Origin: Nemertoderma westbladi
Lineage: Eukaryota; Animalia; Xenacoelomorpha
Length of the DNA: 64,000 nt
Reading direction: 5' to 3'
NCBI GenBank assembly: GCA_032718475.1
Contig: JAUCBJ010006757.1
Location: 1 to 64,000 of the forward strand
Shown here: piece by piece, positions 27,188 to 64,000 of the stretch
Position numbering within the stretch: position 1 is the stretch's first letter
Layout: every line of letters begins with the position of its first letter
Position numbers and translations under genes: made by a program
The notes under the pieces: generated by a model
Database searches by the model: none
The model's input: only the letters and a program-made list of their open reading frames with translations
Told to the model about the DNA's origin: nothing

Positions 27188-27197
27188 CCGCTCCCAG
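27188..27197 (-). other. Polypurine tract of copy B
   Basis: Minus-strand ctGGGAGCGG abuts the 3' LTR. Confidence 0.75.
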
Positions 27198-27265
27198 AAA
27201 ATGGGATTTAAGTCTATAAAATATAACAAATCACAGTTTCTAAAATATAAAAATACTCTAAACAG

Positions 27266-33400: not shown

Positions 33401-36400
33401 GAAGGGCTTGAGATTATCCCAAAGGCCTGGATGGTCATCCAGTACTCCACCGGTTTCTGGTTGAGGTCTCCTTCGGGCCACCACAGAAATCGTAGACTAT
33501 CTCGATCCCTATCTAACACCTTGACTTGTAAGAACATGCCTTCTATATCGGAGGCGAAAGCAATCGAATATTGTCTCAATCTTAAAAGAATTCCCAACAA
33601 AGATTGAAGTAAGTTGGGTCCGGGTAACAATTCAGAGTTAAGGGATTGACCCATGTAAAGAGCGGAGCCATCAAACACTACTCTCACTTCATGTGGCTTA
33701 CCGGGTTTAGGGACGTAATGGTGAGTTAAGTAATACGTTCTTTCAGTCACAGGTGTTTCTTCCGGTACTCTCTCCGCGTATCCCTTACTAATAAATTTAT
33801 CCAGCTGTGTTTGATACATTTCTTTAGCTGAAGAATTAGCCGTAAGGCGTCGATGGAGTTGCGCGATTCTTTTTTCCGCCAAGGGTCTGTTATTGATGAA
33901 CTTCGGTTCTCTCTTGCGGAAAGGTAGACCGACTTCATACCTACCTTGATCTTTGAGGAAACGCGTAGTGGTTTCTTGGATCTGCTTGGCCCTTTCCTCT
34001 TCCACCGATAAGGCTTTATCGTAGGAATTGGGCTCTACCGCCTCTTGCGTAAAGAATCGTACGGCATGTTCATCTCGAGTCTTGGCATTACAACGCTCAA
34101 TGACGTCATTTAGCTCGTCGTTATAAGCTTCTTGTTCAGATGGATAAAGAAGTTGACATAAGTTCACTTGGTTTTGCCAAGCCTCATTTTCCTTAAGGAG
34201 ATCGATGGTATTCTCCTCATCAAAAAGCTGGTGAACGTCGTCGTTATCTGAGGAGTATGGGGTTCCCGCAGTTAAATCATCTCCCTCACTAGTATCATCT
34301 TCCCATTCACTCACCTGGCAGACGCGCTCTTGCGGTAGTCTTTCTCTGAGTGTTCTACGGGAAGGGCCAGTGAAGTACCAACCTACTCTAGTTCTTACCG
34401 CATAGGTCTGTAGTGGTTGCGGTTGAGCAGGCCGTTTCTCTAATGTCTCCAGCGCCTCATGCGCGTTTTGGCCGATGAGTATTTGCACTCCAGGATAATC
34501 AGTCTGGAATCGAGGTATGTTAAGATGTTGGATGCTCTCATCCTCGTCCCAATTATAAAGGTCTGCTTGAGTAGTAGCGAAGTTCTTTATAGCCACCATT
34601 TTCACTGACCTTATGCTATGTTCTCCTAGTTCGTCTTGTGGGGTGGACAACGCACCTACATAATAATCAGCTGTTACTGTAGATTTCCAAACTTGCATAA
34701 TGCCGGACATGTTTAGCTTAGTTCGGAACTTGGGTTGTCCAGCAAATATGTCTTCGGCTAGCTCTTTGTCGATGAATGTTCCTGTACTACCGGAGTCAAG
34801 GAGGGCGTTCACTACATAACTCCTCTTAGGTCCGTGAACCCTTACCTGTACCACAGGAAACTCTCGGATCCCTACATTGGAAGATGGCTCTTTCCAAGAT
34901 GGTTGTCTATCAGAAGTAGTTAGAGTGAAGTCGCTGTCTGTATCTTTTTCATATGTGAGTGCTCGATACACTGCGGTATTTATCATGTAACAGGATTCGT
35001 TTTCGTCGGAGAACTCGTCCGTATAGAATCCTTCCATCTCAGATTGATCAGTGTCGTTCACATCACTGAATTGGACATGTAGTTCGGAATCACTTACCTG
35101 ATTCGGACTATTTCGCTCGAATTCAGCGTGCAACAAGATATGATGTTTCGCACCACACTTTGCACACCTTATGTCCGAGTAACAGGTTCGCCGTTGGTGT
35201 CCTTGTCTGAGGCAATTATAACATAACCGCTTATCCCACATGACTTCTCGTCTCTCCGTTAATGATTTCTTCAGGAATTCCTCACACATATTCAAACGGT
35301 GGGTCCCGTCACATAGCGCACATTTCGGTTTGATGTTACTCACCTTAATCTGAGTCACATTGTGTACACTTGCTTTTTCTTCGGGCTTTCTCACCTGAAT
35401 TCTCTTGGGAGACGTAGGAGGAGTTTTTCTGACCTGTTCTCTCCTGTCATTTGTTCGAGACTTGAATTTACTTACCTGATCTTTAGGCATTTTATTTACG
35501 TAATAAGATCTATCAGTGTCTTTCCCGCTATCTTCTCCTTGAGAAGTCTGGCTTTCGCCGTCGTCTGTATAACACACTGGTGTTACCTTTCTCCTAGAGA
35601 CGGGTTTTTCACTTACCTTGTTTTCCGGTGTCTTCTCTCTGGACAGTTTCAGGAGCTGTAATTTCACTTCTCCATCTAGGAATGACATGAGATCAGCCAT
35701 GGTAGGGTCTCGTCGTTGTTGTTCCATCATATATAACACTTTCTTATCCCAGCGTGTACCTACTCCACCCTTCGGTAAAGTAGAAGCCACTGCTCTAATA
35801 ACCATAGCATTCTGATACTCATGAGACTTACCTAGCCAATCTAATTGTCTACAGATCTCCTGAATCTCATCGGAAAACTCTATAATTCCGCTGCTAATAA
35901 ACTTTCGGGGCGCTACCAACTTTGCATACAAATACCCAGCTATGTTATTCCTATTACCATACCTGATGTTTAGTGTATCCCAAACTTGTCTTAATCCGTC
36001 TGGATGTCCAATAAACTTTAACGCCATTAACTTGGGAGATCCTTCCAAGCACTCGATGAGGAATCTAAGTTTCTCTCCATTAGATAGCACAGAGTTCTGT
36101 ATGTTATCTTTGTAATATTCATTAAAAGGTAACCATTTCATCTCATCTCCATTGAACTTGACGATCTCTCCCACCTTTACCGCTTGCCGGGCTTCGGTTC
36201 TAGCCATTTGACGCGTAAAACTTTCTTGGGCCATCGTGTTATTTAATATCGAGTTATCGGTATATAAATTTCTCGGATTATGATCTGGTCTATAGGGAAT
36301 ATCATTATCAACAGGTCTATAATTACCCTTAATAGGGTTCACTATAGGAGTTTCTACTTCGCTAGCAGTATAGATGCGTGTAGGCTCCACACCTTGCGCA

Positions 36401-38595: not shown

Positions 38596-38719
38596 GTTGG
38601 TTTGCACAGTTGAATGCCTACTGCTATATTACAGTTTAAGCAAGTCTAGTAATTCAGAGTTAACTGCTAGCCTAGTAATTAATTACCGATACTGCTACTC
38701 AGTGTAGCGTGATATATAT

Positions 38720-39120
38720 AATATATTAGAATACCGGTATGCTTATTGCTTATAGTATATATAACTATATAAGTATTATTACAGACTAGGTTTATCACAG
38801 AATACCGGTATAATTTTAGCACAAATATATATAAATATATAATAGGCCTATCGGGAATACCGGTATACAGCTTACAGTTTGTAGTATATATAATTCTGGA
38901 CTAGAATTAATTACAAGTACCGGTATAATTTCAGCCTAAATTTATAGAAATAAAGATAATAGGCCTATCGTAAATACCGGTATGCAGTTTACACTTATAG
39001 TATATATATATAAGTATAATTACAAACTAGAATTAATTACAGAATACCGGTATGATTTCAACCTAAAATTTATAGAAATAAATATAATAAGCCTATTGTA
39101 AATACCGGTATATCAATTAT
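38720..39120. repeat. ~100-bp degenerate AT-rich tandem units (aataccggta / aggcctat) in the leader; also at 6390-6650 and 61735-61990
   Basis: Recurrent ataccggta and tatagtatata in all three copies, with different unit numbers. Confidence 0.75.
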
Positions 39121-40054
39121 TTTAAATAACTGAATTTCTGAATTTTAAGGGTTACTTGGTTACTTTAACTTACTTTATTGCCGTTATTTAAGCAGTAGTC
39201 CAACTGATATTGAGACCTAATTGTTGTATGGCAGGCCTACTATTTATAAATCGTTTGAGTTGATTTATAATATATATATACCCGTTTAATGGGTTTTGTC
39301 AATGTTGAAATAAATGTTATTATTTCTGGGGAGTCACTACACATAAGCAGTGCGCTCTCAGTGGAGTGCTACTTGTTGGACACTAAAACAAATAATTCTA
39401 ATTTAACTAAGTTACTTAATACTACAAATTACGTACAATTCGGGTTGAGATTACAATCTCTAAATAAACACAAAAATTTACAAAAAACACAAAATACGAA
39501 ATTTTAGGGTAATTTTACAAGAAGTCTACAAACCAGCCTGACAAAGGGTTAGAATCTGGTTATTACAACGGACAGGGTACTACGGTATTTGAAAATAATA
39601 AGTAGTAGTAAATACACTGCGTTGTCCAGATAGGAAAATACCACCGCCTGACGACCTATAGCCGTATCGCTATAGGTACTACGTTATGTATCACGGAGTG
39701 TTCCTACCTAGAAGTTAATAGAGCTAATCGAACGTGCCTATCAACCACTTTACAACACAAATATAATGTCTACACTAATTACTTTCGGAAAGCACTGTAC
39801 ACTAAACCCTAAATTAGGTACGAGTACTTGTACAACATATAATCAGTAGTTAAATATACTTGAACAGCTAAAAGAACCACGGCATCTGCTGGAGTGACCA
39901 AAGCACAAAATCTCCAGTCTTTACCTACGCCGAGCAGCCCTGATGTAGTACCGGGGTTAGTTTAACTATAATGGTATGTATAACAAACACAATTACTGTA
40001 GGAATAAACTTGGGGATATGAATGTTGCGAATAATCGCATAAACTCTGAATAAT

Positions 40055-40625
40055 AAATATTACGCTACGCGTACAGACCATTCAAACAAAATGCAGACCA
40101 AATACTGACAGACTACTATCAAGCCTAAACAAACTACGGTATATGCAGACTCCGAAATGATTAAGTAGTATGCGTTCTAACCCAGTAGTACGACTTATTC
40201 TTTAGATGGGGGTTTACCTTACAGCGATGGCTGCCCCTACTTCCTAACCGTTCTTTATCGGACAGATGCTTTGCACACACCGAAATTTCCTCAAACCCAA
40301 CAACAGCCAGACAACTATCCAGCCTACAAATTATCTAAATAAAATTATACGCTACCCGTACAGACTACACAAACAAAGTACAGACTAAACGATGGCAGAC
40401 TACTCTCAAGCCTAAATAAACTACAGGACAGGCAGACTCCGAAATGATTAGGTAGTATGCGTTCTAACCCAGTAGTACGACTTATTCTTTAGTTGGGGGT
40501 TTACCTTACAGCTTTGGCTGCCCCTACTTCCTAACCGTTCTTTATCGGACAGGTGATCTACACACACTGCAATCCGTTCAGACTTAACAGCAATCAGACA
40601 ACAGCCCAGCCTACAAATTGTCTGT
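40055..40625. repeat. ~286-bp tandem duplication in the leader of copy B
   Basis: gcagactccgaaatgatta.gtagtatgcgttctaacccagtagtacgacttattctttag occurs at ~40145 and ~40432; C has a single copy (~63008). Confidence 0.85.
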
Positions 40626-40894
40626 ACAATATGATCAGGCTTACACGCCTTCTGTTCAATACTGGCCTACAAATAAATAAAACTGACAGAAATAGGCCTA
40701 AGTAAAATCCCAATAAAAACCAGGCGTCCCCGATTAATTATTAAGACCTACCGGCATATAATTATCAAAATCGAATAATACTGCTGTACCTATACTGCTG
40801 TAGGTACCGGTCCGGATGATCAGGCAGTCAGGCCTACAGGTTTCCGGTCGACCGGTACTTTCGACTAGATTGCTTACACCGCAATCCAGAAGCA

Positions 40895-40905
40895 ATATCT
40901 GTTAT
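40895..40905 (-). other. Non-tRNA primer-binding site of copy B (ATAACAGATAT), complementary to an LTR-internal 11-mer
   Basis: It abuts the 5' LTR and has no TGG. It is the reverse complement of 26737-26747 (11/11) and 41623-41633 (10/11). Confidence 0.75.
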
Positions 40906-42074
40906 TGTTTGCGCTTTTAAGACCTTTGACAGTTTAACCTGCCAAAATTAGAATGTCTTTTGGATGATAGATAGTCTTTAGCCTATGACGAGTATTTGAT
41001 ACACTACATTAGCCGAAGCCAGTCTTATGCGCAATCATTCACCCGTTGGATATACCCGGGAGACTGAGTTCGGAGCTTAATGATTGATGGTGTAAGCCTA
41101 CTGTATTATTCGACTGATCGTAATATATAATCTCTGACAAATATTATTCACTTTCGGGAAATATTAACAGTTCCTTTAGGACGTGGCGCTCTAAATATGT
41201 AAACAGAGTTATGACTTAAACTAGACGCAACGAAAAGGCTATAGATTCACGTATATGGCGCATTCTTTAGGAGATGCTTTGTTATCAGTTACACTCATAC
41301 ACAATGCTGCACAATACTGCACACTAATCTGCCGACCTTCACTAAATTTGGTCACGTATAAAGAGAGCAACAGACAATTTATGTTGGGCATATGAAATAG
41401 CATTAGATTCACTTCAAACCACTCAACATAGGTCGCAATCGTTTATCTGTAACCGGTCTCTTTAGTATATCAAGAAGGTGGGGTGTCTGACTATTGATCA
41501 GTATTCCGATATAATAATTCATCAGCAAATATAACGAATAACCGACATTAAAAGCAGTAATATTAATGTATAAATGATTATTAAGTGAATGAGTTAACTT
41601 GTGTAACTCGTGAGTAGTTAAGATAACATATATACGTTCTATAATTGAGCCTACTAATGTAAGACTAAAGACTGAAAACACGGAGGTGCCAAAAGCCGGT
41701 TCTTAGGCTCTGGGCAAAAACATAACACTGAACTACTGAGTTCTGTATACACCTCCAACACAGAGACAAAAAACGCTCTGATTGGTCAACCGAACAACGA
41801 GAGAACAAAGAAACAAAGAAACGTCGACGTGGCAATATCAGCTGTTAGCCGTCGTCATGGTAGCGACACTGTTTTCAAGAGTATCCAGGTTATCGCGTAA
41901 CGAGATTGCGGATTATGTCCTCTAAAGTACAAATACAGTACAAATACAGAAGAAATGACTTTTATGTCCTCTAAAACACCAGTACGGCAAGGACACGGCC
42001 TTTTTATGCCTGGCAAACCAACTACAGAGTACTTTAAGGGAAAATAACCGGTTAATGACGCAAAAGCTTTTACA
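40906..42074 (-). repeat. 5' LTR of copy B (1169 bp)
   Basis: Direct repeat of 26014-27187, followed by the TSD. Confidence 0.97.
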
Positions 42075-44239: not shown

Positions 44240-45343
44240 ATGTCTGATATCAAGGAACACAGCTCATTGGCTAACTTCGCCCCGGGGCCGGCCCGTATAT
44301 CCACCGAAGTCCTCGTCAAGGCCCAATCGGAACTGCTCAGTCTGGACCACACAGGGATCAGTCCGTTGGAGATGAGCCACAGATCGGCCCAGTTCGACAA
44401 TATAAACAACGAGGCGGAGGCCAACCTTCGAGAACTCCTAGACATTCCACCCAACTACAAAGTAATCTTCATGCAAGGCGGAGGTCACGGCCAATTCGCG
44501 GCCATTCCTCTCAATCTCCTCCCTACAGGTGGCGAGGCGGATTACATAGTTAGTGGGACTTGGAGTCAGAAAGCCTTTAACGAGGGAAAGAAGTTCGGCA
44601 AGATAAACTTGGCGGCGCAACCGGACCCGTTTACATCGATACCTCCGCAGGAGTCCTGGAAGATCAGCGAGAAATCGTCGTATCTTTACTACTGCGCCAA
44701 CGAAACGATTCACGGGGTTGAATTCTCGTTCGTTCCCCAACACCCCAGCGGCGTCGTTGTTGCCGATGTCTCTTCCAACTTCCTTTCCCAACCCATCGAC
44801 GTCTCCAAGTTCGGGATTCTCTACGCCGGTGCCCAGAAGAACGTCGGACCTTCGGGTTTAACAGTGGTTATAGTTCGGGAGGATTTAATAGGTAATCAGA
44901 AACCGAATTGCCCTGCGATATTGAACTATAAGTTGTTCGCTGACGCGAGAAGTTTGTACAATACGCCGCCGACCTTCAATATTTATTTGGCTAATTTGGT
45001 TTTCCGATGGATTAAAGAGAAGGGAGGTTTGGCGGCTATGCGGGATCTCAGTGTCCGTAAGTCGTCGTTGCTGTACGATATTATCGGGAATTCCGGCGGT
45101 TTCTACCGCTGTCCCGTTGATCCCGCGTGTCGCAGTAAGATGAATGTTGTGTTCCGTGTTGCTGGAGGCGATGTGGGGGTCGAGAAACGGTTTCTTACTG
45201 AGGCAGCCGGTCGAGGGTTGGTTAGTCTGGCAGGGCACCGCTCGGTTGGAGGGATAAGGGCGTCGTTGTATAACTCGGTTACCGTAGAGGACACCGAGAA
45301 GTTGGCCGGGTTTATGAAGGAGTTTATGGAGAAGGAACAGTGA
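44240..45343 (+). CDS. PSAT1: Phosphoserine aminotransferase (class-V PLP enzyme), single coding exon, 367 aa
   Basis: NFAPGPA, LEMSHRS, QGGGHGQF, YCANETIHGVEF, DVSSNFLS, AGAQKNVG (PLP lysine), YNTPP, RSKMNV, GHRSVGGIRASLYN. Full length with animal-type wording. Confidence 0.97.
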   Translation: MSDIKEHSSLANFAPGPARISTEVLVKAQSELLSLDHTGISPLEMSHRSAQFDNINNEAEANLRELLDIPPNYKVIFMQGGGHGQFAAIPLNLLPTGGEADYIVSGTWSQKAFNEGKKFGKINLAAQPDPFTSIPPQESWKISEKSSYLYYCANETIHGVEFSFVPQHPSGVVVADVSSNFLSQPIDVSKFGILYAGAQKNVGPSGLTVVIVREDLIGNQKPNCPAILNYKLFADARSLYNTPPTFNIYLANLVFRWIKEKGGLAAMRDLSVRKSSLLYDIIGNSGGFYRCPVDPACRSKMNVVFRVAGGDVGVEKRFLTEAAGRGLVSLAGHRSVGGIRASLYNSVTVEDTEKLAGFMKEFMEKEQ

Positions 45344-46019: not shown

Positions 46020-49000
46020 AGCCTCCCTCCCTCCCTGACCCAAGGTAAGTTGAGAGCCTCCCTCCCTCCCTGACCCAAAGTAAGTTGAGAGCCTCCCTCC
46101 CTCACTAACCCAAGGTAAGTTGAGAGCCTCCCTCCCTCCCTGACCCAAAGTAAGTTGAGAGCCTCCCTCCCTCCCTAACCCAAAGTAAGTTGAGAGCCTC
46201 CCTCCCTCCCTAACCCAAGTAAGTTGAGAGCCTCCCTCCCTCCCTAACCCAAGGTAAGTTGAGAGCCTCCCTCCCTCCCTAACCCAGGGTAAGTTGAGAG
46301 CCTCCCTCCCCCCCTAACCCAAAGTAGGTTGAGAGCCTCCCTCCCTCCCTAACCCAAAGTAAGTTGAGAGCCTCCCTCCCTCCCTAACCCAAAGTAAGTT
46401 GAGAGCCTCCCTCCCTCCCTGACCCAAAGTAGGTTGAGAGCCTCCCTCCCTCCCTCACCCAAGGTAAGGTGAGAGCCTCCCTCCCTCCCTAACCAAAGTA
46501 AGTTGGGAGCCTCCCTCCCTCCCTAACCCAAAGTAAGTTGAGAGCCTCCCTCCCTCCCTAACCCAGGGTAAGTTGAGAGCCTCCCTCTCTCCCTAACCCA
46601 AGACAAGTTGAGAACCTCCCTCCCCCCCTAACCCAAAGTAGGTTGAGAGCCTCCCTCCCTCCCTAACCCAAAGTAAGTTGAGAGCCTCCCTCCCTCCCTA
46701 ACCCAAAGTAAGTTGAGAGCCTCCCTCCCTCCCTGACCCAAAGTAAGTTGAGAGCCTCCCTCCCTCCCTGACCCAAAGTAAGTTGAGAGCCTCCCTCCCT
46801 CCCTAACCCAAGGTAAGTTGAGAGCCTCCCTCCCTCCCTAACCCAAGGTAAGTTGAGAGCCTCCCTCCCTCCCTAACCCAAGGTAAGTTGAGAGCCTCCC
46901 TCCCTCCCTGACCCAAAGTAAGTTAAGAGCCTTCCTCCCTCCCTAACCCAAGGTAAGTTAAGAGCCTCCCTCCCTCCCTAACCCAAAGTAAGTTGAGAGC
47001 CTCCATCCCTCCCTAACCCAAGTAAGTTGAGAGCCTCCCTCCCTCCCTGACCCAAAGTAAGTTGAGAGCCTCCCTCCCTCCCTAACCCAAATAAGTTGAG
47101 AGCCTCCCTCCCTCCCTAACCAAAGTAAGTTGAGAGCCCCCCTCCCTCCCTAACCAAAGTAAGTTGAGAGCCTCCCTCCCTCCCTGACCCAAAGTAAGTT
47201 GAGAGCCTCCCTCCCTCCCTGACCCAAAGTAAGTTGAGAGCCTCCCTCCCTCCCTCACCCAAGGTAAGGTGAGAGCCTCCCTCCCTCCCTAACCCAAGGT
47301 AAGTTGAGAGCCCCCCCCCCCCCTCCCTAACCCAAGGTAAGTTGAGAGCCTCCGTCCCTCCCTAACCCAAGTAAGTTGAGAGCCGCCCTCCCTCCCTCCC
47401 TAACCCAAAGTAAGTTAAGAGCCTCCCTCCCTCCCTGACCCAAAGTAAGTTGAGAGCCTCCCTCCCTCCCTCCCTAACCCAAAGTAAGTTGAGAGCCTCC
47501 CTCCCTCCCTAACCCAAGTAAGTTGAGAGCCGCCCTCCCTCCCTGACCCAAAGTAAGTTGAGAGCCTCCCTCCCTAACCAAAGTAAGTTGCGAGCCTCCA
47601 TCCCTCCCTGACCCAAAGTAAGTTGAGAGCCTCCCTCCCTCCCTAACCCAAATAAGTTGAGAGCCCCCCTCCCTCCCTAACCCAAGTAAGTTGAGAGCCT
47701 CCCTCCCTCCCTGACCCAAAGTAAGTTGAGAGCCTCCCTCCCTCCCTAACCCAAATAAGTTGAGAGCCTCCCTCCCTCCCTAACCAAAGTAAGTTGAGAG
47801 CCCCCCTCCCTCCCTAACCAAAGTAAGTTGAGAGCCTCCCTCCCTCACTAACCCAAGGTAAGTTGAGAGCCTCCCTCCCTCCCTGACCCAAAGTAAGTTG
47901 AGAGCCTCCCTCCCTCCCTGACCCAAAGTAAGTTGAGAGCCTCCCTCCCTCCCTCCCTAACCCAAAGTAAGTTGAGAGCCTCCCTCCCTCCCTAACCCAA
48001 AGTAAGTTGAGAGCCTCCCTCCCTCCCTAACCAAAGTAAGTTGCGAGCCTCCATCCCTCCCTGACCCAAAGTAAGTTGAGAGCCTCCCTCCCTCCCTAAC
48101 CCAAGGTAAGTTGAGAGCCTCCCTCCCTCACTAACCCAAGTAAGTTGAGAGCCTCCCTCCCTCCCTGACCCAAGGTAAGTTGAGAGCCTCCCTCCCTCCC
48201 TGACCCAAGGTAAGTTGAGAGCCCCCCTCCCTCCCTAACCCAAGGTAAGTTGAGAGCCTCCCTCCCTCCCTCACCCAAGGTAAGGTGAGAGCCTCCCTCC
48301 CTCCCTAACCAAAGTAAGTTGGGAGCCTCCCTCCCTCCCTAACCCAAAGTAAGTTGAGAGCCTCCCTCCCTCCCTAACCCGGGTAAGTTGAGAGCCTCCC
48401 TCCCTCCCTCACCCAAGGTAAGGTGAGAGCCTCCCTCCCTCCCTAACCAAAGTAAGTTGAGAGCCTCCCTCCCTCCCTGACCCAAAGTAAGTTGAGAGCC
48501 TCCCTCCCTCCCTAACCCAAGGTAAGTTGAGAGCCTCCCTCCCTCCCTCACCCAAGGTAAGGTGAGAGCCTCCCTCCCTCCCTAACCAAAGTAAGTTGGG
48601 AGCCTCCCTCCCTCCCTAACCCAAAGTAAGTTGAGAGCCTCCCTCCCTCCCTAACCCAGGGTAAGTTGAGAGCCTCCCTCTCTCCCTAACCCAAGACAAG
48701 TTGAGAACCTCCCTCCCCCCCTAACCCAAAGTAGGTTGAGAGCCTCCCTCCCTCCCTAACCCAAAGTAAGTTGACAGCCTCCCTCCCTCCCTAACCCAAA
48801 GTAAGTTGAGAGCCTCCCTCCCTCCCTGACCCAAAGTAAGTTGAGAGCCTCCCTCCCTCCCTAACCCAAAGTAAGTTGAGAGCCTCCCTCCCTCCCTAAC
48901 CCAAGGTAAGTTGAGAGCCTCCCTCCCTCCCTCACCCAAGGTAAGGTGAGAGCCTCCCTCCCTCCCTAACCCAAGGTAAGTTGAGAGCCTCCCTCCCTCC

Positions 49001-49324
49001 CTCACCCAAGGTAAGGTGAGAGCCTCCCTCCCTCCCTAACCCAAAGTAAGTTGAGAGCCTCCCTCCCTCCCTAACCCAAAGTAAGTTGAGAGCCTCCCTC
49101 CCTAACCCAAGGTAAGTTGAGAGCCTCCCTCCCTCCCTCACCCAAGGTAAGGTGAGAGCCTCCCTCCCTCCCTAACCAAAGTAAGGTGGGAGCCTCCCTC
49201 CCTCCCTAACCCAAGGTAAGTTGAGAGCCTCCCTCACCCAAGGTAAGGTGAGAGCCTCCCTCCCTCCCTAACCAAAGTAAGTTGAGAGCCTCCATCCCTC
49301 CCTGACCCAAAGTAAGTTGAGAGC
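46020..49324. repeat. 35-bp minisatellite, roughly 90-95 copies: CCTCCCTCCCTCCCTAACCCAAAGTAAGTTGAGAG
   Basis: Directly visible; period 35 (e.g. 46151 and 46186). Confidence 0.97.
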
Positions 49325-51889: not shown

Positions 51890-53840
51890 TTTTTCATTTT
51901 GTCTGTCTGTTGGTCTGTTTTTCTGTTTGTCAACAAATTATGGATATAAAAATATACACCACCTAACTAAAATAATTGCTACATGGGTTTTCGTGGTCGC
52001 GGATTTCATTTCCGGGGTCAGTTTTCAAATTTGACGTAATCTAGTTTGTCAGTCTGTTTGTCCGTCTGTCGGTCTGTCTGTCAAAAACATACGTATCACA
52101 CTACGTAAGGTTTTAAGGTCGGTGATTTCATTTATGGTGTTATCTTTCCTGTTTGGAGGAGTCTATTATGCCTTTATATTTGTCTGTCAGTCGATCTGTC
52201 TGTACATACTACTACTACTAGTACTACTAGTATCGGCATGCTGCATTTTTAAGAATGCTGTGCCGGCTTGTCGACAAAATTGCGCCGCCACAACTCCCTA
52301 TCAGATCGTCCGCATCTTCAAGACCAGTGTCCTTTAAGATGCGTCTCAAGAAAGTCATGGGCTGTCCAGTCCACCATGCTTATTCACTCCAGGAGGCTGC
52401 CAAAGTACAAGATTATGCACTGGCTGGTCCTCACGGCGAAAGCAATGTCCTGCAAAGCGGAGGCGATTTTGTTCTAGTGTCAAGCTTGGGGGAACCAATG
52501 AGACACCTCCAATGTTATATAGTGTCTGGTTGGATATGTGTGCATTGTACTTGACACAATGAACCCGGCGTAGCATTCTTGTGAATGTGTCATCCAGAGA
52601 TTTGGTATCCTCAGCAGTTAGAGCCCAGCATGGACTCCCATAGAGGAGTACTGGAACTACTGCTGCTCTAAATAATCGGTCCTTAAGTTTCCGATTAATT
52701 CTCGGTGACTTCCAAATCCTGGAAAGCCTATTCAAGGCTGCCCATGCCTTTCCCTTACGTATTCGAAGGTCCTCACCTGACTTCCGGATCCATGATCCCA
52801 GGTAACAGAAGTCGTCCACATGCTCAAGCATACCATCCTTTGAGCTTATGCTCATCCGATCAGAGACTTGCTGAGAACTTTCAAACTTAACTGTCAAAAT
52901 TTTGGTCTTTCTGGAGTTAATAAAAAGACCAACACTAGAAGCAGCATGTTCTAATGAGCTGAGGAGCCGTTGGGCTCCCTCTAGTGATTCTGAGAGTACT
53001 CCTAAGTCATCAGCAAAGTCTAGATCAGTTAGGTACTTGGCAGGATTTCCTCGACTTCTGGAGCCAGTAGGTGGAGTTATCATCACCCCATCATCCATCA
53101 TCATTATGATGATCTAAGGACATGCTTAGAACATAGTCAACCACAATTATGAACAAGAATGGTGCAAGTGTGTCTCCCTGGAGGACGCCCCATAACACTT
53201 CAAATGGTTCTGTGTCACCATCAACAGTAGACACAAATGTTGTCGAACCACAGACAGATGAACAGACGTACATACAGACAGACTTAAACAGACAGTCTAG
53301 GTTCATGCAATTATTAAAAATGACATGGGAAATGAAATCAGCGACTAGGAAAACCCCCATATCAGAAATTATAGTAAAGTGATGTGTTTACTTATATTTT
53401 ATCTGTGACACCGACAGTAAGTCAGACAGACAGACAAACAGACAGACCGACAGACAGATAGACAGTCCAGATGTCATCAAACATTAAAACATGTATTAGA
53501 AATGAAATCAGAGACTAGGAAAACCCCCATATCGGAAATTTTATTCAGGTGACATGCCTCCTTATATTTTGACTGACAGACAGACAGACATAAAAACAGA
53601 CAAACAGACATTCTAGGTTCAGTCAAATATTAAAATTGACATCGGAAATGGAATCAGACACTAGGAAAACCCCCATATCATAAATTATAGTAAAGTGATG
53701 TGCTTACTTATTTATTTTCTGTGAGATTGACAGTCATACAGACAGACAGACAGAATAACAGACAGAGAGGCAGTTCAGATATCATCAAACATTAAAACAT
53801 ATATCAGAAATAAATTCAGCGACTACGAAAACCCCTAAAT
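51890..53840. repeat. (CAGA)n-containing ~160-bp repeat units in inverted arrangement around the LINE fragment
   Basis: Four tandem units at 53250-53840 (cagacagac...gaaatgaaatcagcgactaggaaaaccccc) and reverse-complement unit(s) at ~51890-52200 (gggttttcgtggtcgcggatttcatttcc...tgtctgtc). Confidence 0.7.
52207..53248 (-). mobile_element. 5'-truncated RTE-type non-LTR retrotransposon (RT 3' half) with (TAG)n tail
   Basis: GVLQGDTLAPFLFIIVVDY, LDFADDL, FCYLGS, PVLLYGS and RLRFAGHC motifs in ORFs 53360-53091 and 53104-52355; (TAG)n-like tail at 52207-52232. Confidence 0.88.
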
Positions 53841-54113: not shown

Positions 54114-55341
54114 TGTTCGCGCTTTTGAAGACCTTTAGCAGTTTAACCTGCCAAAATTTATGTCTTTTAGTTAATTAACACACCTTTAGCATACGACAAT
54201 ATTTTATGCTAATAAACAAAACATTAGCCGAAGCCAGCCCATGCGCGATCATTCACCCGATGGATCTACACCCGGGAGGCTGAATTCGGATGCTTAGATT
54301 TTATTATTGCAGTGTAAGGTTGCAGTGTAAACCTATTGTATTATTCGATAGATCGTTAATATGTAATTTCTGACAGATATTATTAACTTTCGGGAAATAT
54401 TAACAGTTCCTTTAGGACGTGGCGCTCTATCTATTTAAACAGAGCTAGGACTTATACTAAACGCAACGATAAGGCTTATGATTAAAGTATAAGTCGCATT
54501 CTTTAGGAAATGCTTTGTTACCAGTCACATCACACTCACAATCATGCACACTATTCTGCCGACCGTCAGTATATTTGATCACACCTAAAGAGAACAGCAA
54601 TTGACTCAGGTAGTGTCTACTAAATAACATTAGATTCAATACACACCACATTGATATAAATCGCAATTGTTATATATAGCCCGCCTCTCTAACCTGTAGT
54701 GTATCAAGAAAATTGGGAATTTTGGGTGATTTATCCGTATTCTCCAAAGAGCAATATTTCCATCAACAAATAGATACAATTAATAACTGACGGTAAATAG
54801 CAGTACAAACAATATGATTAGTGCAGTTAAATTAAGTGAGGTAACACCGCCGGTAACAGTTATACTTTCTATAATCTAAGCAGTTTTACTAGAGTTCTTA
54901 GAGCCGGTGTTTCTGGCTTAGACAGCAATAACAACAAAGTATCAAGTAAAAGCAGTAAGACTGAACACTCTCCTTATGATCGGCTGAAAAGCTACACGTC
55001 GACAGGAAAAATCGCTCTGATTGGCTCAAGCCAAACAAAGAACTATGCGTCCAATGGATGTTTCCATGTCAGCAACCAGCTGTTAGATGTCGTAATATGA
55101 ATCATCACGGCTAAGCTGTGAAAGGTAGTTGGTGCATTACAGGTTTTTTGCCTTACCATGTCCGCCAAAACACGTATATAGCAGAATGACTTTTATGTCC
55201 GTTAAAACACCTGTAACGGTACCTTGCGGGCGAGGGGAATATATATACAGTTAGAGAACCTTTTTAGAGTATTCCAGCGCCTGGGGGGAAACTGGATTGC
55301 GAAGCAAAAGGGGCCAGTTATATCCCACAGAAGCTTTTACA
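54114..55341 (-). repeat. 3' LTR of copy C (1228 bp); PPT at 55342-55351
   Basis: TGTAAAAGCTT...GCGCGAACA termini on the minus strand; ctGGGAGCGG PPT. Confidence 0.95.
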
Positions 55342-55419
55342 CCGCTCCCAGAAAATGGGATTTGAGTCTATAAATATACAAAAATCACAGTTTCTAATAT
55401 ACGTAAATACTCTAAACAG

Positions 55420-56869
55420 TTAGTCTTTCTTGCGCGGACGGCGTTTACGCAGTTTTTTAAAGCTAGCAAGAGTCCTTTTCTCTTTGGGGCGAGCCACTTT
55501 ACGAGGAGGGCTATAACTCCTGGGTGAAGGGTGCAATATGATTGCATCAGAAGGTATGGGATTGCGATCGGTATATCCGCCGGTCGAAGTACCGGGTTGA
55601 TTGACATCAACGTCCGGGGAGAGGGGTCTAACGGCTTTGAGAGCTCGTTTCAAGACAGCCGCTCTTACGGGTCCTTTACGAGTGGTCTGAACGAGGGCCG
55701 TGGGTGGACCATAGGCAGTTAGAAACTTCCTTGGTTTAATGGTTCTTTCCAACTCGCGTTCGCGGGCTCTGTACTCGTAAGGCCGTCGATATACTTCCTG
55801 TAACTCAGGGTGTGAGTTGACAAATAAGTCTCCATAGGCCGGATCTTGACGGATAAAGTTTATTAAGTTATACGAATTGATGTCACTCGGATTAATGCTC
55901 CTGAGGAATTTGCGTACATATTTGGTTGAAATACATTCTCCAACGCGCTTCAATAGTTCATAACTTGATAGGCGCGATTTCTGCTCGACGGAGGCAAACA
56001 AATATGGATGGAACGCATAAACTCCTTCGTAGGCGCTTCCAGGATAATAGCGATGGCGTGAATCACAATGTAAATCAGCGTTCGCTTCCCAAGCTCTGAT
56101 GTAACGTAGTGTGATCATTTCATCTACGCTTTCCAAATCGTGATTAAAAGGGCAATCGAAACTGGCATGTCTCCTTTAGTTGACAATGGTGACATTGAGT
56201 CATAAATTGAGGGCAAACCGCAAAAATATGCAAATTATTAAATCTGCAATACGCGCAATAAATTTCCATCGCCGGTTGTTCGTGGAAATAGGAACAGCGG
56301 ACGTTTGTGTCCATGGGCGTAACATGGTCTCTCGATGCGCATAACCGACAACGTTGCCGAGAAACATAGTTGGCATGGCGATAATCGTACGCAGTGAGAC
56401 ACTGTGGACTTTGATACCATTCTAGGATGTAATCGTTGTCGCTGTTCCGAGCGCGATAGGCTGAATCTCCTCAGATTCTAGACATATTGGTTCGTCTTCC
56501 CAGTCTGTTACGAATAGAATTTTCGTGATCTATTCTCGGTTTATCGTTACGACGCCGCTGGGTATGATATTTAAATAGAACCATTTCCCTTTCGGTGTCT
56601 ACATCGTCCGTATCATGTAAATCGATAGGATGGCCAGTAGTTAAGAAGTCCATATACGTACCATTACGATTCGTATAGCGAGCGGTGAATTTTCTATAGT
56701 CCAATTCACGCGTAAGTTGTTCCTGGGACATCGGCGGTTCGATATAGCGACCATCGTCCTCCGTAATGGTTGGATCGGTTTCACCGCGTATCAAGCTATC
56801 CACAAACGCTTGTAAAGGTAGAGTATATCGCTCTCTAATACCAAGGTCATCTTCTATCAATTCCGTCAT
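55420..56869 (-). pseudogene. Extra 3' ORF (ORF2) of copy C, ~480 codons with one stop (56471-56473) and one frameshift (~56175); central zinc-knuckle array
   Basis: N- and C-terminal parts match A and B. Manual read-through gives CRLCASRDH, CAYCRFNNLHIFAVC and CHHCQL(RR)HASFDC. Confidence 0.75.
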
Positions 56870-58493
56870 ATCTGCTATCTGAGTTTATTAATATCAGTAT
56901 GAGTTAATATTTAGGCAAGCGGGCGTCGCTGCCTACTAGTCTTTGCCCCCGGACAGTGGGTTTCTCAGCGCCGATGTACCGTCGTCGCGGTGTTTACGCC
57001 AACATGTAGCAACAGCACGACAACGATAACCGGCACAAGTCCCACCACTGTCCGTCCCAAAGGCTTGAATCCACTTAAGGTTATCTCGGTAGAGTTAGGG
57101 CTACTTTACAATTGCGATTAGCTACTGTAAACACACTTTAGTAGTAACATTCACCTATAAACGCACAAATTCCATACAATCATTACTTACTGCACACATG
57201 CAGGCCATTTGTCCGTTAATCAGTGTCTTCCAGAATGTCACGTTATTACTATGTATCCTTGGATACTAATAGTGCGCTATGTATACTCTTATGCTACGCA
57301 ATGGGGCAAGCTTTTTATTGTTCCTTTAACTTGCTTCTAATTCTAGCGTGGGTGTTGCCATGGTGACATTATGGAAAACTAGCGGTAGAATTAGGGTAAT
57401 TCTCATGCATACAGATCTGGGATGCTATTTAATAGTAATTCTTTAATTGTCAATATCCTCTTTATGCATGATTTTATAAATTTTATCGGCTATTGACTAT
57501 ATGTTGGAGATTCTCACACTCTAATACACTCAATATGAATCTCCGCTCCCATGATCTATTAATTACTGGAATTTTGGGAATGTTATAAATTGCACAAAAT
57601 GACAATTTATGAAATTCATTTGAATATGAATTTAAATTTATTCCCGTGAATTTTATTATTTGATGTTAAATTGACACAAATTTTATTCCAGAGCATATCT
57701 GGGGACTTAGGATCCTTAATTCTATAAAATAGTCCTTCTAAGAATATCGGTAAATACTGCGATATCTGAATTGACTAGAAATTTTAAAGGATCGGGATTT
57801 TACAGATTTTAATAAATATTAAATTAATATTTAGGATGGGCACCGATTTATTCCAGAACTTGTCTGGGGACATTAACCACTGATTCTAGAATTTGTCTTT
57901 CAAGTATATCGGTGGGTGCCACGATATCTTAATCGACTGGAATTACAGAAGGTCAAAAGTTTAACAGATTTATTTGCGATTTACGCTACTGTTAGAGGGA
58001 CATCACGCTACTATATGTATTATTTGTTATAAGGTAGAAGAGCAATATCGCACGAAGCAATGTCAGTGTGAAGAGGCAAGTCGTTTCCAAGGTCTACCCA
58101 GAGCTTGGTTTAGCCGAGACACGAGGATCTGAACTTTGCATTCCTAATACTCTGCCTACCAATAATACTTAAATATAGTAGGAGCTTTATTGTACTTTAA
58201 TAAGTACGGACATTTCATCTTACTGTAGTCACGTATTTATAATATGATACGGACAGTAAGGAAAGAGAAAAAATAATTATTTCTCGCCGTCGCACTAAAT
58301 ATATATTATAAATAATTACGTACGTAATAAACACTAATATATTGCACTAATCTACTAAATAATCCCTAAAATAACATTCTACCAAATAAAATTAAAGAAA
58401 ACGATTATAATAATATTACATAATAATACATACATAAATATAAAATAAAAACAAATATAAAATGATATAGTCACACACCCACTCCATATGTTA

Positions 58494-61400
58494 TTACGTT
58501 ATGGAGTCCCTAGATATTTGTCGGATTAGGGAAGTGGTCGTAGGAAGAGTATCTTGCCTTCCATAGTTTCCGGACAGTTTTCGGTCTCTTTCCAGTAAAC
58601 ATAAACGACCAGCTGGGTGATTGGGTTGTCGTGTTACTTTCTCCGCTCCCTTGGCCTGTCTAATCTCAGCCGGGTTAAGGTGGGGAGGCCATTCATCTTC
58701 TTCTTTACTTAGGGAGTCGGGTCCACCTAACCAGCCGGGAGTATCTATCCGTTCTTGAGGAGTCGCTCCTCTGGAAGCGATGTCGGCTAGATTAATCATC
58801 TCGGGGCGATGTCTCCATTGATCTTCATTGGAGTTAATATCGTCATTATCTGAGGAGTATGGTGTTCCCTCAGTTAGTTCGTCCACTTCACTGCTCTCCA
58901 CTTCCCAACCATTTATCTGGCATATTCTTTCTGGTGGTAGTCTCTCTTCGAGAGTTCTGCGGGAAGGGCCAGTAAAGTACCAACCTACTCTAGTTCTTAC
59001 CGCATAGGTTTGTAGTGGCTGCGGTTGAGCAGGTCGTTTTTCCAATGTCTCGAGCGCCTCGTGCGCGTTTTGGCCGATAAGTATTTGCACTCCAGGATAA
59101 TCCGTCTGGAATCGAGGTATCTTAAGATGTTGGATGCTCTCATCCTCGTCCCAATTATAAAGGTCTGCTTGGGTAGTAGCGAAGTTCTTTATAGCCACCA
59201 TTTTTACTGACCTTATACTTTGTGCTCCTAATTTATCCTGGGGGGTGGACAACGCACCTACATAGTAATCTGCCGTTATGGTAGATTTCCAAACCTGTAT
59301 AATTCCTGACATATTCAATTTAGTCCGGAACTTGGGTTGTCCAGCAAAGATATCTTCGGCTAGTTCTTGATCGATGAATGTTCCTGTGCTGCCGGAGTCA
59401 AGTAGGGCGTTCACTATGTAACTCTTGTTGGGACCATGAACTCGAACTTGCACTACAGGAAATTCTCTTATTCCTATGTTGGAAGTTGGAACTTTCCAAG
59501 ATGGTTGTTTGTCAAAAGGAGTTGGAGTAAACTCGTCAGTGTCCTTTTCATCCGTAAGTGCTCGATACACTGTGGTATTTATTAGGTAACAGGATTCGTT
59601 GGCGTCGGAGAATTCGTCCGTATAGAATCCTTCCCACTCAGAACTTTGGTCAGTGTCGTTCACATCACTGAATTGGACATGTGATTTGGGCTCACTTACC
59701 TGACTCGGGCTGTTTCGTTCGAATTCACTTTGTAACAAGATGTGATGCTTCGCACCGCACTTTGCACACTTTATGTCGGAGTAACAGGTTCGCCGCTGGT
59801 GTCCGCGTCTGAGGCAATTATAGCATAACCGCTTGTCCCACACAACTGTACGTCTGTCTACAAGGGATTTCTTTAGGAATTCCGCACACGCACTCAAACG
59901 GTGGGGCCCGTCGCACAGCGCACAGTTGGGTTTAATGTTACTCACCTTATTTTGGGTGACGTTATGCACTCTAGTTCTTTCTTCGGGCTTTCTTCCGAGT
60001 ACTCTGTTAGGAAACTGAAGAGGAGTCTTAGCAACCTGTTCTCTCCTGTCATGGGTTCGAGCTTTAGATTTACTTACGTTCTTTGAGGTCTTGTTAACAT
60101 AGTAAAATTTCTCGGTGTCTTCCTCGCTGTCTTCTTCTTGAGAAGCTTGGCTTTCGCCGTCATCAGTATAACACACCGGTGTTACTCTTCTCCTAGAAAC
60201 GGGTTTCTCACTTACCTTATTTTCCGGTGTTTTCTCTCTGGATTGCTTTAGGAGTTGTAATTTCACTTCGCCATCCAAGAATGACATGAGATCAGCCATG
60301 GTAGGGTCTCGTTGTTGTTGTTCCATCGTATATAACACCTTCTTGTCCCAGCGTGTACCTACTCCACCCTTGGGCAAAGTAGATGCTAAGGCTCCTACAA
60401 CCATAGAATTCTGGTATTCATGAGACTTACCTAACCAATCTAGTTGTCTACAGATCTCCTGAATCTCATCGGAAAACTCTATAATCCCGCTGCTAAGAAA
60501 CTTTCGGGGGGCCATTAATTTCGCATATAAATACCTAGCTATGTTATTCCTATTACCATACCTGATGTTTAGTGTATCCCAAACTTGTCTTAATCCATCT
60601 GGATGTCCAATAAATTTTAACGCCATTGACTTGGGAGGTCCTTCCAAGCACTCGATGAGGAATCTAAGTTTCTCTCCGTTGGATAACACAGAGTTCTGTA
60701 TGTTATCTTTATAATATTCATTAAAAGGTAACCATTTCATCTCATCTCCATTGAACTTGACTATCTCTCCAACCTTTACCGCTTGACGGGCTTCGGTTCT
60801 AGCCATTTGACGCGTAAAACTTTCTTGGGCCATCGTGTTATTGAATATCGAGTTATCGGTATATAAATTTCTCGAATTATTATCAAGTCTATTGGGAATG
60901 TCATTAACAACAGGCGTATAATCACCCTTAATAGGGTTTGCTATAGGAGTTTCTACTTCACTAGCAGTATAGATGCGTGTAGGCTCCACACCTTGCGCAT
61001 GTAATACTTCAGACCTAACAGGCTGACACACTGTTACAGGGGTTATTGGTATTCCCTTTTGTAGGTTGACTAATTTGTCGCATTCTAGTGCGATACTTTG
61101 CTGCACTTTTTGCAACTCTAACCTACTTTCCCTTACTGTTCCCTTGAGCTGCTGAACAGTCTCTTCCATTTCCCTGACCTGCTGAGAGGAGCACAAACAG
61201 TGTTCCCTCAGCTGCTCGAGCAGGAGACCCATCTCCCGTCGTCCCTCAGCTACCCACTCAACCGCCGAAGCGGGAGTCGCCAACGTAGTAGCGGGCGAGC
61301 GAGAGACGACGGGCGATAAATTCTTGATACCTCGCTCGGCGTCCAGGACGGGTTCGGACTCGGGAACAGTCCTACTGGGCACAGGTAGTCTTCTGGTTTG

Positions 61401-61598
61401 TTTCTTCAAGTAATCTTGTTTCGCCTGAAGGTTTTCCAGCTCTAGTTGGATAGTCGCTTCAGACGTCTTCCGTTCTGCTTCTGCCACTGCCTCTGCCGCT
61501 TTTCTGTCTTCTCTCCTTTCAAGACACTGTCCAAGTCGACGACTCATTCTAAAACCCTCTAAGAGACTATCTGACAATGTTTGTGTTGTGTCAGACAT
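58494..61598 (-). CDS. In-frame internally deleted Gag-protease polyprotein (1034 aa) of copy C
   Basis: One open frame from the family ATG to the family stop. It retains the Gag core, three knuckle regions and ALLDSGS, and lacks RT, most of RH, and IN. Confidence 0.9.
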   Translation of the reverse strand: MSDTTQTLSDSLLEGFRMSRRLGQCLERREDRKAAEAVAEAERKTSEATIQLELENLQAKQDYLKKQTRRLPVPSRTVPESEPVLDAERGIKNLSPVVSRSPATTLATPASAVEWVAEGRREMGLLLEQLREHCLCSSQQVREMEETVQQLKGTVRESRLELQKVQQSIALECDKLVNLQKGIPITPVTVCQPVRSEVLHAQGVEPTRIYTASEVETPIANPIKGDYTPVVNDIPNRLDNNSRNLYTDNSIFNNTMAQESFTRQMARTEARQAVKVGEIVKFNGDEMKWLPFNEYYKDNIQNSVLSNGEKLRFLIECLEGPPKSMALKFIGHPDGLRQVWDTLNIRYGNRNNIARYLYAKLMAPRKFLSSGIIEFSDEIQEICRQLDWLGKSHEYQNSMVVGALASTLPKGGVGTRWDKKVLYTMEQQQRDPTMADLMSFLDGEVKLQLLKQSREKTPENKVSEKPVSRRRVTPVCYTDDGESQASQEEDSEEDTEKFYYVNKTSKNVSKSKARTHDRREQVAKTPLQFPNRVLGRKPEERTRVHNVTQNKVSNIKPNCALCDGPHRLSACAEFLKKSLVDRRTVVWDKRLCYNCLRRGHQRRTCYSDIKCAKCGAKHHILLQSEFERNSPSQVSEPKSHVQFSDVNDTDQSSEWEGFYTDEFSDANESCYLINTTVYRALTDEKDTDEFTPTPFDKQPSWKVPTSNIGIREFPVVQVRVHGPNKSYIVNALLDSGSTGTFIDQELAEDIFAGQPKFRTKLNMSGIIQVWKSTITADYYVGALSTPQDKLGAQSIRSVKMVAIKNFATTQADLYNWDEDESIQHLKIPRFQTDYPGVQILIGQNAHEALETLEKRPAQPQPLQTYAVRTRVGWYFTGPSRRTLEERLPPERICQINGWEVESSEVDELTEGTPYSSDNDDINSNEDQWRHRPEMINLADIASRGATPQERIDTPGWLGGPDSLSKEEDEWPPHLNPAEIRQAKGAEKVTRQPNHPAGRLCLLERDRKLSGNYGRQDTLPTTTSLIRQISRDSIT

Positions 61599-63469
61599 TT
61601 CGCTTTATACAGTTGGATGCCTACTGCTATATATACAGTTAAAGCAAGTCTAGTAATTCAGTATCACTGCTAGCCTAATAATTAATTACCGATACTGCTA
61701 CTCAATGTAGCGTGATATATATATATAATATATTAGAATACCGGTATGCTTATAGTATATATAAGTATTATTACAGACGAGATTTGTCACAGAGTACCGG
61801 TATATAAATTTAGCACAAATATATATAAATATATAATAGGCCTATAGTGAATACCGGTATACAGCTTACACTTATAGTATATATAAGTATAATTATGAAC
61901 TAGAATTAATTACAGAGTACCGGTATGATTTCAGCTCAAATTTATAGAAATAAATATAATAAGCCTATGGTAAATACTGGTATGTCAATTATTTTAGAAT
62001 AATTGAATTTCTGAATATTTTAGGGTTACTTGGTTACTTTAACTTACTTTATTACCGTTATTTAAGCAGTAGTCCAACTGATATTGAGACCTAGTTGTTG
62101 TATGGCAGGCCTACTATTTATAAATCGTTTGAGTTGATTTATAATATTTATATACCAGTTTAAAATGGGTTTTTGTCAATATTTGAAATAAATGTTATTA
62201 TTTCTGGGGGAGTCACTACACAGAAGCTGAACGCCTCTCAGTGAAGTGCTATTTATTTGACACTAAAACTGATAATTCTAATTTACCTAAGTTACTTAAT
62301 ACTACAAATTACTTACGATACGGGTGAGATTAATTCTCTAATTAAACACAACAAAATATTACGTACGAAATTTTTAGGGTAATTTTACAGGAAGTCTACA
62401 AACCAGTCCAACAAAGGGTTAGATTTCTGGTTATTACAAAGGACAGGGTACTACGGTATTTAAATAATAAGTAGTAGTAAATATATTGTACTGTCCAGAT
62501 AGGAAAATACCACCGCCTGACGACCTATAACCGTATCGCTATAGGTACTACGTTATGTATCACGGATTGTTCCTACCCAGAAGCTAATAGAGCTAACGAA
62601 TGTGCCTATCAACCACTTTACAACACAAATATAGCCTACTGCCTACACTAATTACTTCGGAAAGCACTGTACACTAAACCCTAAATTAGGTACAAGTACC
62701 GGTATAACAAATAATCAGTAGTTAAATATACTTGAACAGTTAAAAGAACCACGGCATCTGCTGGAGTGACCGAAGCACAAAATCTCCAGTCTTTACCTAC
62801 GCCGAGCAGCCCTGATGTAGTACCGGGGTTAGTTTAACTATAACGGTATGTATAACAAGCACAATTACTGTAGGAATAAACTTGGGGACATGAATGTTGC
62901 GAATAATCGCATAAACTAGTGTATTACGGTACCTGAACAGACCACACAAACAAACACAGGCTAAAACACTGGCAGACTACGATCAAGCCTAAATAAACTA
63001 CAGTATATGCAGATTCTGAAACTGTTAGTTAGTATGCGTTCTAACACGGTAGTACGACTTATTCTTTAAGAGGGGATTGACCTTCAGCATATGGCTGCCC
63101 CAACTTACTAACGGCACTTTATCAGACAAACTCTACACACGCCGTAATCTCTCCAAACCCAACAACAGTCAGACAGCAGCTCAGCCTACAATTATCTGAA
63201 CAATCTGAGCAGGGTCACACGCCTTCTGCTCAATATTAGCCTACTAGTAAATAAAACCGACAGAAATAAGTAAACTATACAAAAGAATGAGGGGTGATCA
63301 ATCCCTATTCCCCTGGCAGCCTACAATATACAATAGATCACAATCGAAATAATACTAAATGTACTTGTACAGCAGTACCGGTACCGGTGATGACAGTTAG
63401 GCCTACAGACCTACAGAAATACCGGTTACTACGGTATTTTGCAACCTTATTGCCTACTGCAATAAGATC

Positions 63470-63480
63470 ATAACTGTTAC
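63470..63480 (-). other. Non-tRNA primer-binding site of copy C (GTAACAGTTAT)
   Basis: It abuts the 5' LTR and is the exact reverse complement of the LTR 11-mer at 54853-54863. Confidence 0.75.
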
Positions 63481-64000
63481 TGTTCGCGCTTTTGAAGACC
63501 TTTAGCAGTTTAACCTGCCAAAATTTATATGTCTTTTAGTTAATTAACACACCTTTAGCATACGACAATATTTTATGCTAATAAACAAAACATTAGCCGA
63601 AGCCAGCCCATGCGCGATCATTCACCCGATGGATCTACACCCGGGAGGCTGAATTCGGATGCTTAGATTTTATTATTGCAGTGTAAGGTTGCAGTGTAAA
63701 CCTATTGTATTATTCGATAGATCGTTAATATGTAATTTCTGACAGATATTATTAACTTTCGGGAAATATTAACAGTTCCTTTAGGACGTGGCGCTCTATC
63801 TATTTAAACAGAGCTAGGACTTATACTAAACGCAACGATAAGGCTTATGATTAAAGTATAAGTCGCATTCTTTAGGAAATGCTTTGTTACCAGTCACATC
63901 ACACTCACAATCATGCACACTATTCTGCCGACCGTCAGTATATTTGATCACACCTAAAGAGAACAGCAATTGACTCAGGTAGTGTCTACTAAATAACATT
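63481..64000 (-). repeat. 5' LTR of copy C (partial, cut by the window end)
   Basis: Repeats 54114 to ~54631 almost exactly. Confidence 0.95.

Follow-up and report, generated by a model that had tools for sequence, protein, structure and literature searches.

Three related copies (A, B and C) of a retrotransposon in the 64-kb window, that is, in the whole stretch of the Nemertoderma westbladi contig JAUCBJ010006757.1 analyzed here, each carry, in the sense direction and located after pol but before the 3' LTR, the remnant of a second gene, ORF2, which starts about 1.6 kb past pol, has both ends in common among the copies and has a middle that comes in two mutually unalignable forms. It is highly probable that a selected two-form gene of this kind exists.

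Three copies of a BEL/Pao element

The copies were found by comparing the window with itself, and by the features tested they are copies of one multi-copy BEL/Pao LTR retrotransposon (Table 1). The LTRs of copy B have TG...CA termini and are accompanied by a short target duplication, while its single gag-pol frame has a triple Cys-His motif and the domain order PR-RT-RH-IN, as is characteristic of BEL/Pao; the Pfam domains in this frame are DUF1759, Peptidase_A17, Integrase_H2C2 and DUF5641. A search for BEL-type relatives gave 568 matches at E <= 1e-20, the best of them with 45% identity (RT-RNase H region). The named nearest relatives in this region come mostly from echinoderms, cnidarians and molluscs (39-44% identity), and two come from fish. 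With no more than 45% identity to its nearest relatives in RT-RNase H, and with mostly marine invertebrates among the named ones, this lineage is sparsely represented, and blank searches with ORF2 therefore weigh less. The N-terminal part of gag contains tandem repeats rich in Ala, Glu and Lys (37184-37416 and 7960-8177), which vary in length and are deleted in C.

The LTR pair of copy C is identical across 518 aligned bases, bar one 2-nt gap, which points to a very recent insertion of C as a non-autonomous copy. For copy A no 5' LTR match was found in the window, and inspection by eye of the sequence right after the 5' LTR of B (40780-40905) and C (63355-63480) revealed no canonical TGG primer binding site. 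The LTRs at 15079-16346, 26014-27187 and 54114-55341 are only 70-75% alike over the 3' half, and their 5' halves align barely or not at all, unlike the internal regions of the copies, which are 82-90% alike; this pattern would reflect either LTR swapping or a fast change of U3.

The window also contains an intronless ORF of 367 codons with an aminotransferase class V domain (44240-45343, plus strand; Pfam E 1.7e-43), which resembles phosphoserine aminotransferase and is a host gene or a retrocopy among repeats; an ORF of 399 codons whose charged repeat looks like a coiled coil and which has no Pfam match under E 0.05 (573-1772, minus strand), perhaps the start of the gag of another element; a reverse-transcriptase fragment with DUF6451 (52355-53113, minus strand), probably a remnant of a non-LTR element; and satellite arrays at 18040-19783, 21094-21916, 23562-24043 and 46020-49324 with units of 36, 68, 54 and 35 bp, respectively, the last comprising 95 copies.

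Table 1. Coordinates of the element copies, ORF2 modules and flanking signals in the window.
Feature	Position	Strand	Remarks
Copy B, full length	26014-42074	-	LTRs 26014-27187 and 40906-42074, 98.7% identical; 5-bp target duplication
Copy B gag-pol	30427-38628	-	Open, 2733 codons (8.2 kb); BEL/Pao domains
Copy C gag-protease ORF	58494-61604	-	Deletion of RT, RNase H and integrase; non-autonomous
Copy C 3' LTR	54114-55341	-	Compared with 5' LTR 63481-64000 (cut by window edge)
ORF2, copy C	55420-56869	-	ATG to stop, 1450 nt; stop at 56473-56471; frame break near 56172
ORF2, copy B	27266-28784	-	1519 nt; A/B-type middle 27429-28413; single-base gaps, stops, 192-nt tail deletion
ORF2, copy A	13454-15000	+	1547 nt; middle 13823-14648; shared-start ATG absent; about 164 nt missing relative to B; frame breaks
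Acidic N-terminal module	56498-56869	-	Common to the copies, about 120 codons; copy C coordinates
C-type middle	55773-56497	-	About 240 codons, 725 nt; Cys/His knuckles, then predicted helical part
Three knuckle-like motifs	56150-56350	-	Cx2Cx4Hx9C; Cx2Cx5Hx4C; third split by frame break (Cx2C before, Hx4C after)
Basic Ser/Pro-containing tail	55420-55772	-	Common to the copies, about 115 codons; predicted disordered; terminal Lys/Arg cluster
A/B middle core with Cys/His cluster	13939-14361	+	Copy A; dN/dS 0.31 (A-B)
In-frame TAA common to A and B	14541-14543 (A), 27534-27532 (B)	+ (A)	About 35 codons before tail
Non-coding spacer between pol and ORF2	56870-58493 (C), 28785-30426 (B), 11740-13450 (A)	- (C)	C and B 89% identical
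Candidate branch point and AG splice acceptor just before ORF2 start	56872-56915 (C), 28787-28830 (B), 13409-13451 (A)	- (C), - (B), + (A)	Pattern
Internal second copy of polypurine tract	57543-57551 (C), 29477-29485 (B), 12764-12772 (A)	- (C)	3/3 copies
Terminal polypurine tract, copy C	55342-55350	-	

Layout and motifs of ORF2

A previous sequence-only reading had described a sense ORF2 of 1.6-1.7 kb that follows pol and ends about 80 nt before the LTR. The stop indeed lies 78 nt upstream of the LTR in B and C, and all motifs quoted in that reading were found, while the length had been overestimated (Table 1; A and B each carry a deletion). The gene remnant is real, but as a reading frame it is open in no copy, all three being broken. 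Likewise, the conserved ends of about 120 and 115 codons are common to the copies as had been claimed, whereas the layout as one polypeptide with a swapped middle may hold only for the C form, as A and B have a stop before the tail, which that reading had left out.

The A/B-type middle has about 330 codons (about 990 nt). Pfam gave no zf-CCHC match for the knuckles of the C-type middle; their spacings are variants of Cx2Cx4Hx4C, and the motif nearest to the canonical one is cut by the frame break. At the level of patterns, the Lys/Arg cluster of the tail, which the A/B form may lack, resembles a nuclear localization signal (NLS), and a Cys-rich region is present too.

The claim that ORF2 is not an env gene agrees with the hydropathy of the ORF2 pieces tested. 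No hydrophobic segment was found in them by a simple window method, the best 19-residue value being 1.25 (0.46 for the N-end and less than 0.4 for the tail), and Pfam gave no match of these pieces to viral fusogen families; single-sequence fold models were poor. Judged by the signal peptide and the transmembrane anchor expected of an envelope protein, ORF2 does not appear to be env.

Two unrelated middles

The middles of C and A/B gave no match to each other by blastn or tblastx, and none of the 18 frame pairs scored better than shuffled sequences (best p 0.075), while in the A-B control nine of nine did. When the helical part of the C middle was compared by hhalign with a shallow profile of two sequences, the probability was 0.2% and E 0.32; the knuckle stretch of C did not resemble the Cys/His cluster of B (p 0.23). 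Hence the middles, described earlier as unalignable, are so at the DNA, protein and shallow-profile levels, and the profile match that would have spoken for a common origin was not seen.

Six sequencing runs from four studies contain the ORF2 of C (one is possibly the source of the window, and none is recorded as RNA, though run X4 could be). In four runs labelled as two organisms, 4158, 1355, 42 and 74 contigs, whose depth sums are not copy numbers, were aligned to 55700-56600, and in each of these four runs all 30 bins of the C middle were covered. The two deep runs contain 188-409 aligned contigs with less than 90% identity on the C middle. Diverged contigs thus cover the C middle in 4/4 runs, and it is not peculiar to a single insertion.

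The junction of the C middle with the tail is bridged by a contig at about 83% identity (run X5). At the other junction, contigs depart from the N-end at 56495 in runs X1, X3 and X4, and by eye the loose ends of these contigs correspond to how the A/B middle begins; both middles therefore join the same N-end in three runs, the A/B side being read by eye from these loose ends. In addition, a third arrangement was found in runs X3 and X5, with the C middle preceded from 56508 by unlike upstream sequence, which in one case continues for 255 letters. This arrangement fits a donor from a sister lineage and is consistent with an exchange of the middle.

Selection on the ORF2 modules

The dN/dS ratios were calculated by codon counting in ungapped blocks with no transition correction, and the neutral level is given by a spacer control, not by one: in six spacer frames the ratio was 0.52-1.02. 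The ratios for the N-end were 0.12 (C-A), 0.20 (C-B) and 0.29 (A-B), for the tail 0.16 (C-A) and for the core of the A/B middle 0.31 (A-B), compared with 0.13-0.17 for gag, protease and RNase H. Non-triplet gaps numbered one in 726 aligned bases of the ends (A-C) versus 25 in 1589 bases of the spacer (C versus B). Past selection on the protein, deduced earlier from synonymous third-position differences, is thus supported, as purifying selection, by ratios of 0.12-0.31 in the N-end, the A-C tail and the A/B core, well below the control rather than near one throughout.

For the C middle, 36 of the 40 contig differences listed (ahead of 100 further rows) were scored, those set aside being two from the tail, a single one from the N-end and one with an uncertain frame. 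By codon position they are distributed as 7/3/26, and 23 are synonymous, versus a 21% share of synonymous sites; the 36 differences come largely from one group of diverged contigs and are not independent events, and only three fall within the stretch of the knuckles.

Between A and B, the late part of the middle and the 3' half of the tail have near-neutral ratios (0.86 and 0.91), and amino acids changed faster in the last 60 or so codons before the common TAA and in the 3' half of the tail taken together (34/256 sites) than in the N-end and core (44/596 sites; p 0.005). The A-B tail sample comprises only 54 codons, and in the A-C comparison the tail changed more than the N-end at amino-acid level, but not significantly so (p 0.13). 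Synonymous divergence rises beside the junctions, with dS 1.04 in the 5' half of the tail.

Decay and the common stop

None of the three copies has an intact ORF2, and it is most decayed in B, the sole copy with an intact gag-pol: relative to both A and C, the N-end of B has three single-base gaps, and there are more in the middle. Nearly all aligned contigs differ from C at the 56172 frame break, so this break is peculiar to C. In B gag-pol is intact while ORF2 is heavily broken, and C moved very recently with a broken one, so ORF2 is dispensable in cis. Because of the TAA common to A and B, the A/B product may end before the basic tail; the frame past this TAA is in register with the tail in both copies, which suggests a once-continuous gene.

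Spacer and candidate processing signals

The spacer (about 89% identity, up to 94-95% near 57363-57513) is more conserved than the synonymous sites of ORF2 or gag, which suggests cis-acting signals or homogenization. It contains a duplicated unit of about 130 bp. No strongly scoring RNA structure recurred at one corresponding site across the three copies, and the Rfam search was blank; folding gave scattered windows with z < -3, roughly matching between copies only around the 130-bp unit. The pattern of a branch point and an acceptor before ORF2 occurs in 3/3 copies, with a chance mean of 0.20, but it was derived from these very copies, and an earlier guess at the spacing matched none. The internal polypurine tract, situated about 690 nt upstream of ORF2 in all three copies, is possibly a plus-strand primer.

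Search for relatives and folds

ORF2 appears to be an orphan, with no relative in protein, profile or fold searches. Word-seeded searches gave no relative among 1702 candidates for the 251-aa piece of C (among longer proteins) and none among 175 for the 195-aa piece of B (at near lengths). The sole HMMER match among 1.84 billion representatives, obtained with the N-end and knuckles of C, was a bacterial protein with 24 HYR_4C repeats; it is a sum of weak matches, the best with 30.8 bits and resting on one short motif, and was rejected as chance. No ORF2 piece matched Pfam under E 0.08, and a match to Stc1 at E 0.087 was disregarded. Among PDB sequences the best E-values were 0.96 and 1.9. The ESM Atlas contained nothing usable for the C piece, and the best score for the A middle (0.87) is at lead level only. 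For the N-end of A, pattern matches in metagenomes (129) and viruses (13) included no related locus.

The ORF2 pieces did not match 120 BEL polyproteins, and the knuckles of C did not resemble the element's own gag knuckles (p 0.12); for the Cys/His cluster of B this comparison gave p 0.026, which, as one of three tests, was not taken as homology. Single-sequence fold models (pLDDT 46.5 and 55.3) gave no match (best Z 4.6; best E 0.81) and, at this low confidence, exclude nothing.

Possible role of ORF2 and alternative explanations

We tentatively propose, as a quite possible reading, that the product of ORF2 is a zinc-binding accessory factor of the nucleus which works in trans on RNA of the element, and that template switching between diverged sister lineages swapped its middle. 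The proposed function is based on the analogy with CERV, the accessory protein of the nematode element Cer1. The ORF2 protein would be made from a spliced message via the acceptor before the start and carried to the nucleus by its basic tail; the knuckles or the Cys/His cluster would bind zinc and nucleic acid, most simply the unspliced genomic RNA, and this binding would promote export or stability of the genomic RNA, as CERV and Rev do. Intact copies elsewhere would supply ORF2, so that copies with a dead ORF2 could still move, and the conserved ends would serve as homology for a double crossover of the reverse transcriptase. Mosaic LTR elements are described to arise by template switching (PMC6894440); such copy-choice recombination, the third arrangement and the mosaic LTRs of the window are all in keeping with the exchange step. 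Against the export of RNA as the function, two unrelated middles would be odd if the same RNA target must be bound, and the A/B form appears, from its reading frame, to stop before the basic tail.

The coexistence of two unrelated selected effectors in runs labelled as two organisms could also be explained if ORF2 were an anti-silencing protein, whose two middles would serve as alternative effectors retained through an arms race with silencing by the host. This would agree with an ORF2 dispensable in cis, which would act in trans, with the nuclear appearance of the tail and with the high repetition of the family, and zinc-binding suppressors are common in viruses. However, positive selection was not seen, as dN/dS was below one in every tested module, and the searches revealed no similarity to a known suppressor or chromatin domain; we consider such a counter-defence role rather doubtful. 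The same grade of doubt applies to a more far-reaching reading, by which ORF2 would be a modular nuclear orphan protein, supplied in trans and possibly anti-silencing, with its central zinc-binding effector a polymorphic cassette shuffled among sister lineages, so that the retrotransposon would have an allelic system of effectors.

Alternatively, the two forms may be a by-product of recombination between sister families with different accessory genes, in which case the A/B chimera would have been cut short early at the common stop, its vestigial tail would persist only because it lies near the polypurine tract and the LTR, and no functional exchangeable cassette would exist. The TAA common to A and B, the near-neutral change after the core, the 192 nt lost from the B tail, the third arrangement and the lack of an intact copy in the window all favor this explanation, but the once-continuous frame suggested by the register past the TAA and the selection on the A/B core after the A-B split (dN/dS 0.31) do not, and the faster change of the tail is not significant between A and C and is seen between A and B in few codons; we hold the by-product explanation to be unlikely. 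It is more unlikely still that the middles are one homologous zinc-binding domain diverged past recognition, with ends homogenized by recombination: Cys/His clusters do occur in both, 40-110 codons past the N-end, and synonymous divergence is raised beside the junctions, but the lengths and motif spacings differ, and neither the frame pairs nor the comparison of knuckles with the B cluster nor hhalign detected similarity. It is hardly credible that the C middle arose in this copy alone, through insertion of a host exon or of another element. Its knuckle triplet recalls the nucleocapsids of retroelement Gag or ORF1 proteins, but it matched neither the element's own gag knuckles nor the BEL polyproteins, it replaces the A/B middle rather than interrupting it, and the diverged contigs that cover it in all four runs show an excess of third-position differences.

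Comparison with known systems

Env is the extra gene of BEL/Pao elements as described in PMC3118150 and PMC13524379. The env-bearing members (F-type in roo, chuvirus-like gB type in mosquitoes) also have an extra sense ORF according to these descriptions, while the ORF2 reported here has no signal or membrane segment and no Pfam match to a fusogen family, and it has a basic tail. Extra ORFs other than env are described for elements of rotifers, plants, nematodes and flies (PMC5408684, PMC7264820, PMC10309623, 10.1101/2025.03.14.642691), and a captured MBD is described in arthropod copia elements (PMC6673714). Gypsy and copia elements are those from which non-env accessory genes have been reported, few of them with a known function. 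A literature search, which covered titles and abstract beginnings of mainly open-access papers, found no dimorphic non-env ORF in BEL/Pao.

A close parallel in description is CERV of Cer1, a Ty3/gypsy element of Caenorhabditis elegans, which is reported as a spliced nuclear protein of 517 aa with a KRKK motif and a Cys loop needed for export of genomic RNA (PMC10309623). Like CERV as described there, ORF2 is about 500 aa long, non-env, modular and Cys-rich, has a basic NLS candidate and lacks homologs outside its lineage (PMC10309623). In contrast to ORF2, CERV is described as sharing exons with gag, being essential for genomic RNA export and having a G-protein-like domain (PMC10309623); ORF2 for its part lies downstream of pol, is defective in copies that moved and exists with two different middles. 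The general protein, profile and ESM Atlas searches with the ORF2 pieces yielded no CERV-type match.

The ORF3 of bdelloid rotifer elements (GDSL, DEDDy, transmembrane or coiled coil) is likewise non-env, located after pol and different between related families, and is described as consisting of spliced separate units; there, whole ORFs for recognizable enzymes were gained or exchanged (PMC5408684), whereas the difference here is confined to the middle of a single orphan ORF. Additional ORFs of plant elements, such as gene23 of Grande, are described as orphans between pol and the 3' LTR with gag-pol-like conservation, some of them nuclear, and with unknown function; unlike ORF2, the nuclear examples are antisense and belong to gypsy elements (PMC7264820). 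In MDG1, sORF1 and sORF2 are also non-env accessory ORFs under selection, and sORF1 is nuclear, but they have 70-110 aa, and sORF2 is, unlike the ORF2 described here, a transmembrane fusogen-like protein (10.1101/2025.03.14.642691).

Should the A/B form prove truncated, the present case comes down to the decay of an accessory gene in subfamilies that recombine. An orphan gene under selection that occurs with two natural middles in one family would offer a built-in comparison of different effectors between the same ends, and would allow one to test the roles of accessory genes in retrotransposons without an envelope as well as domain shuffling by template switching within a gene.
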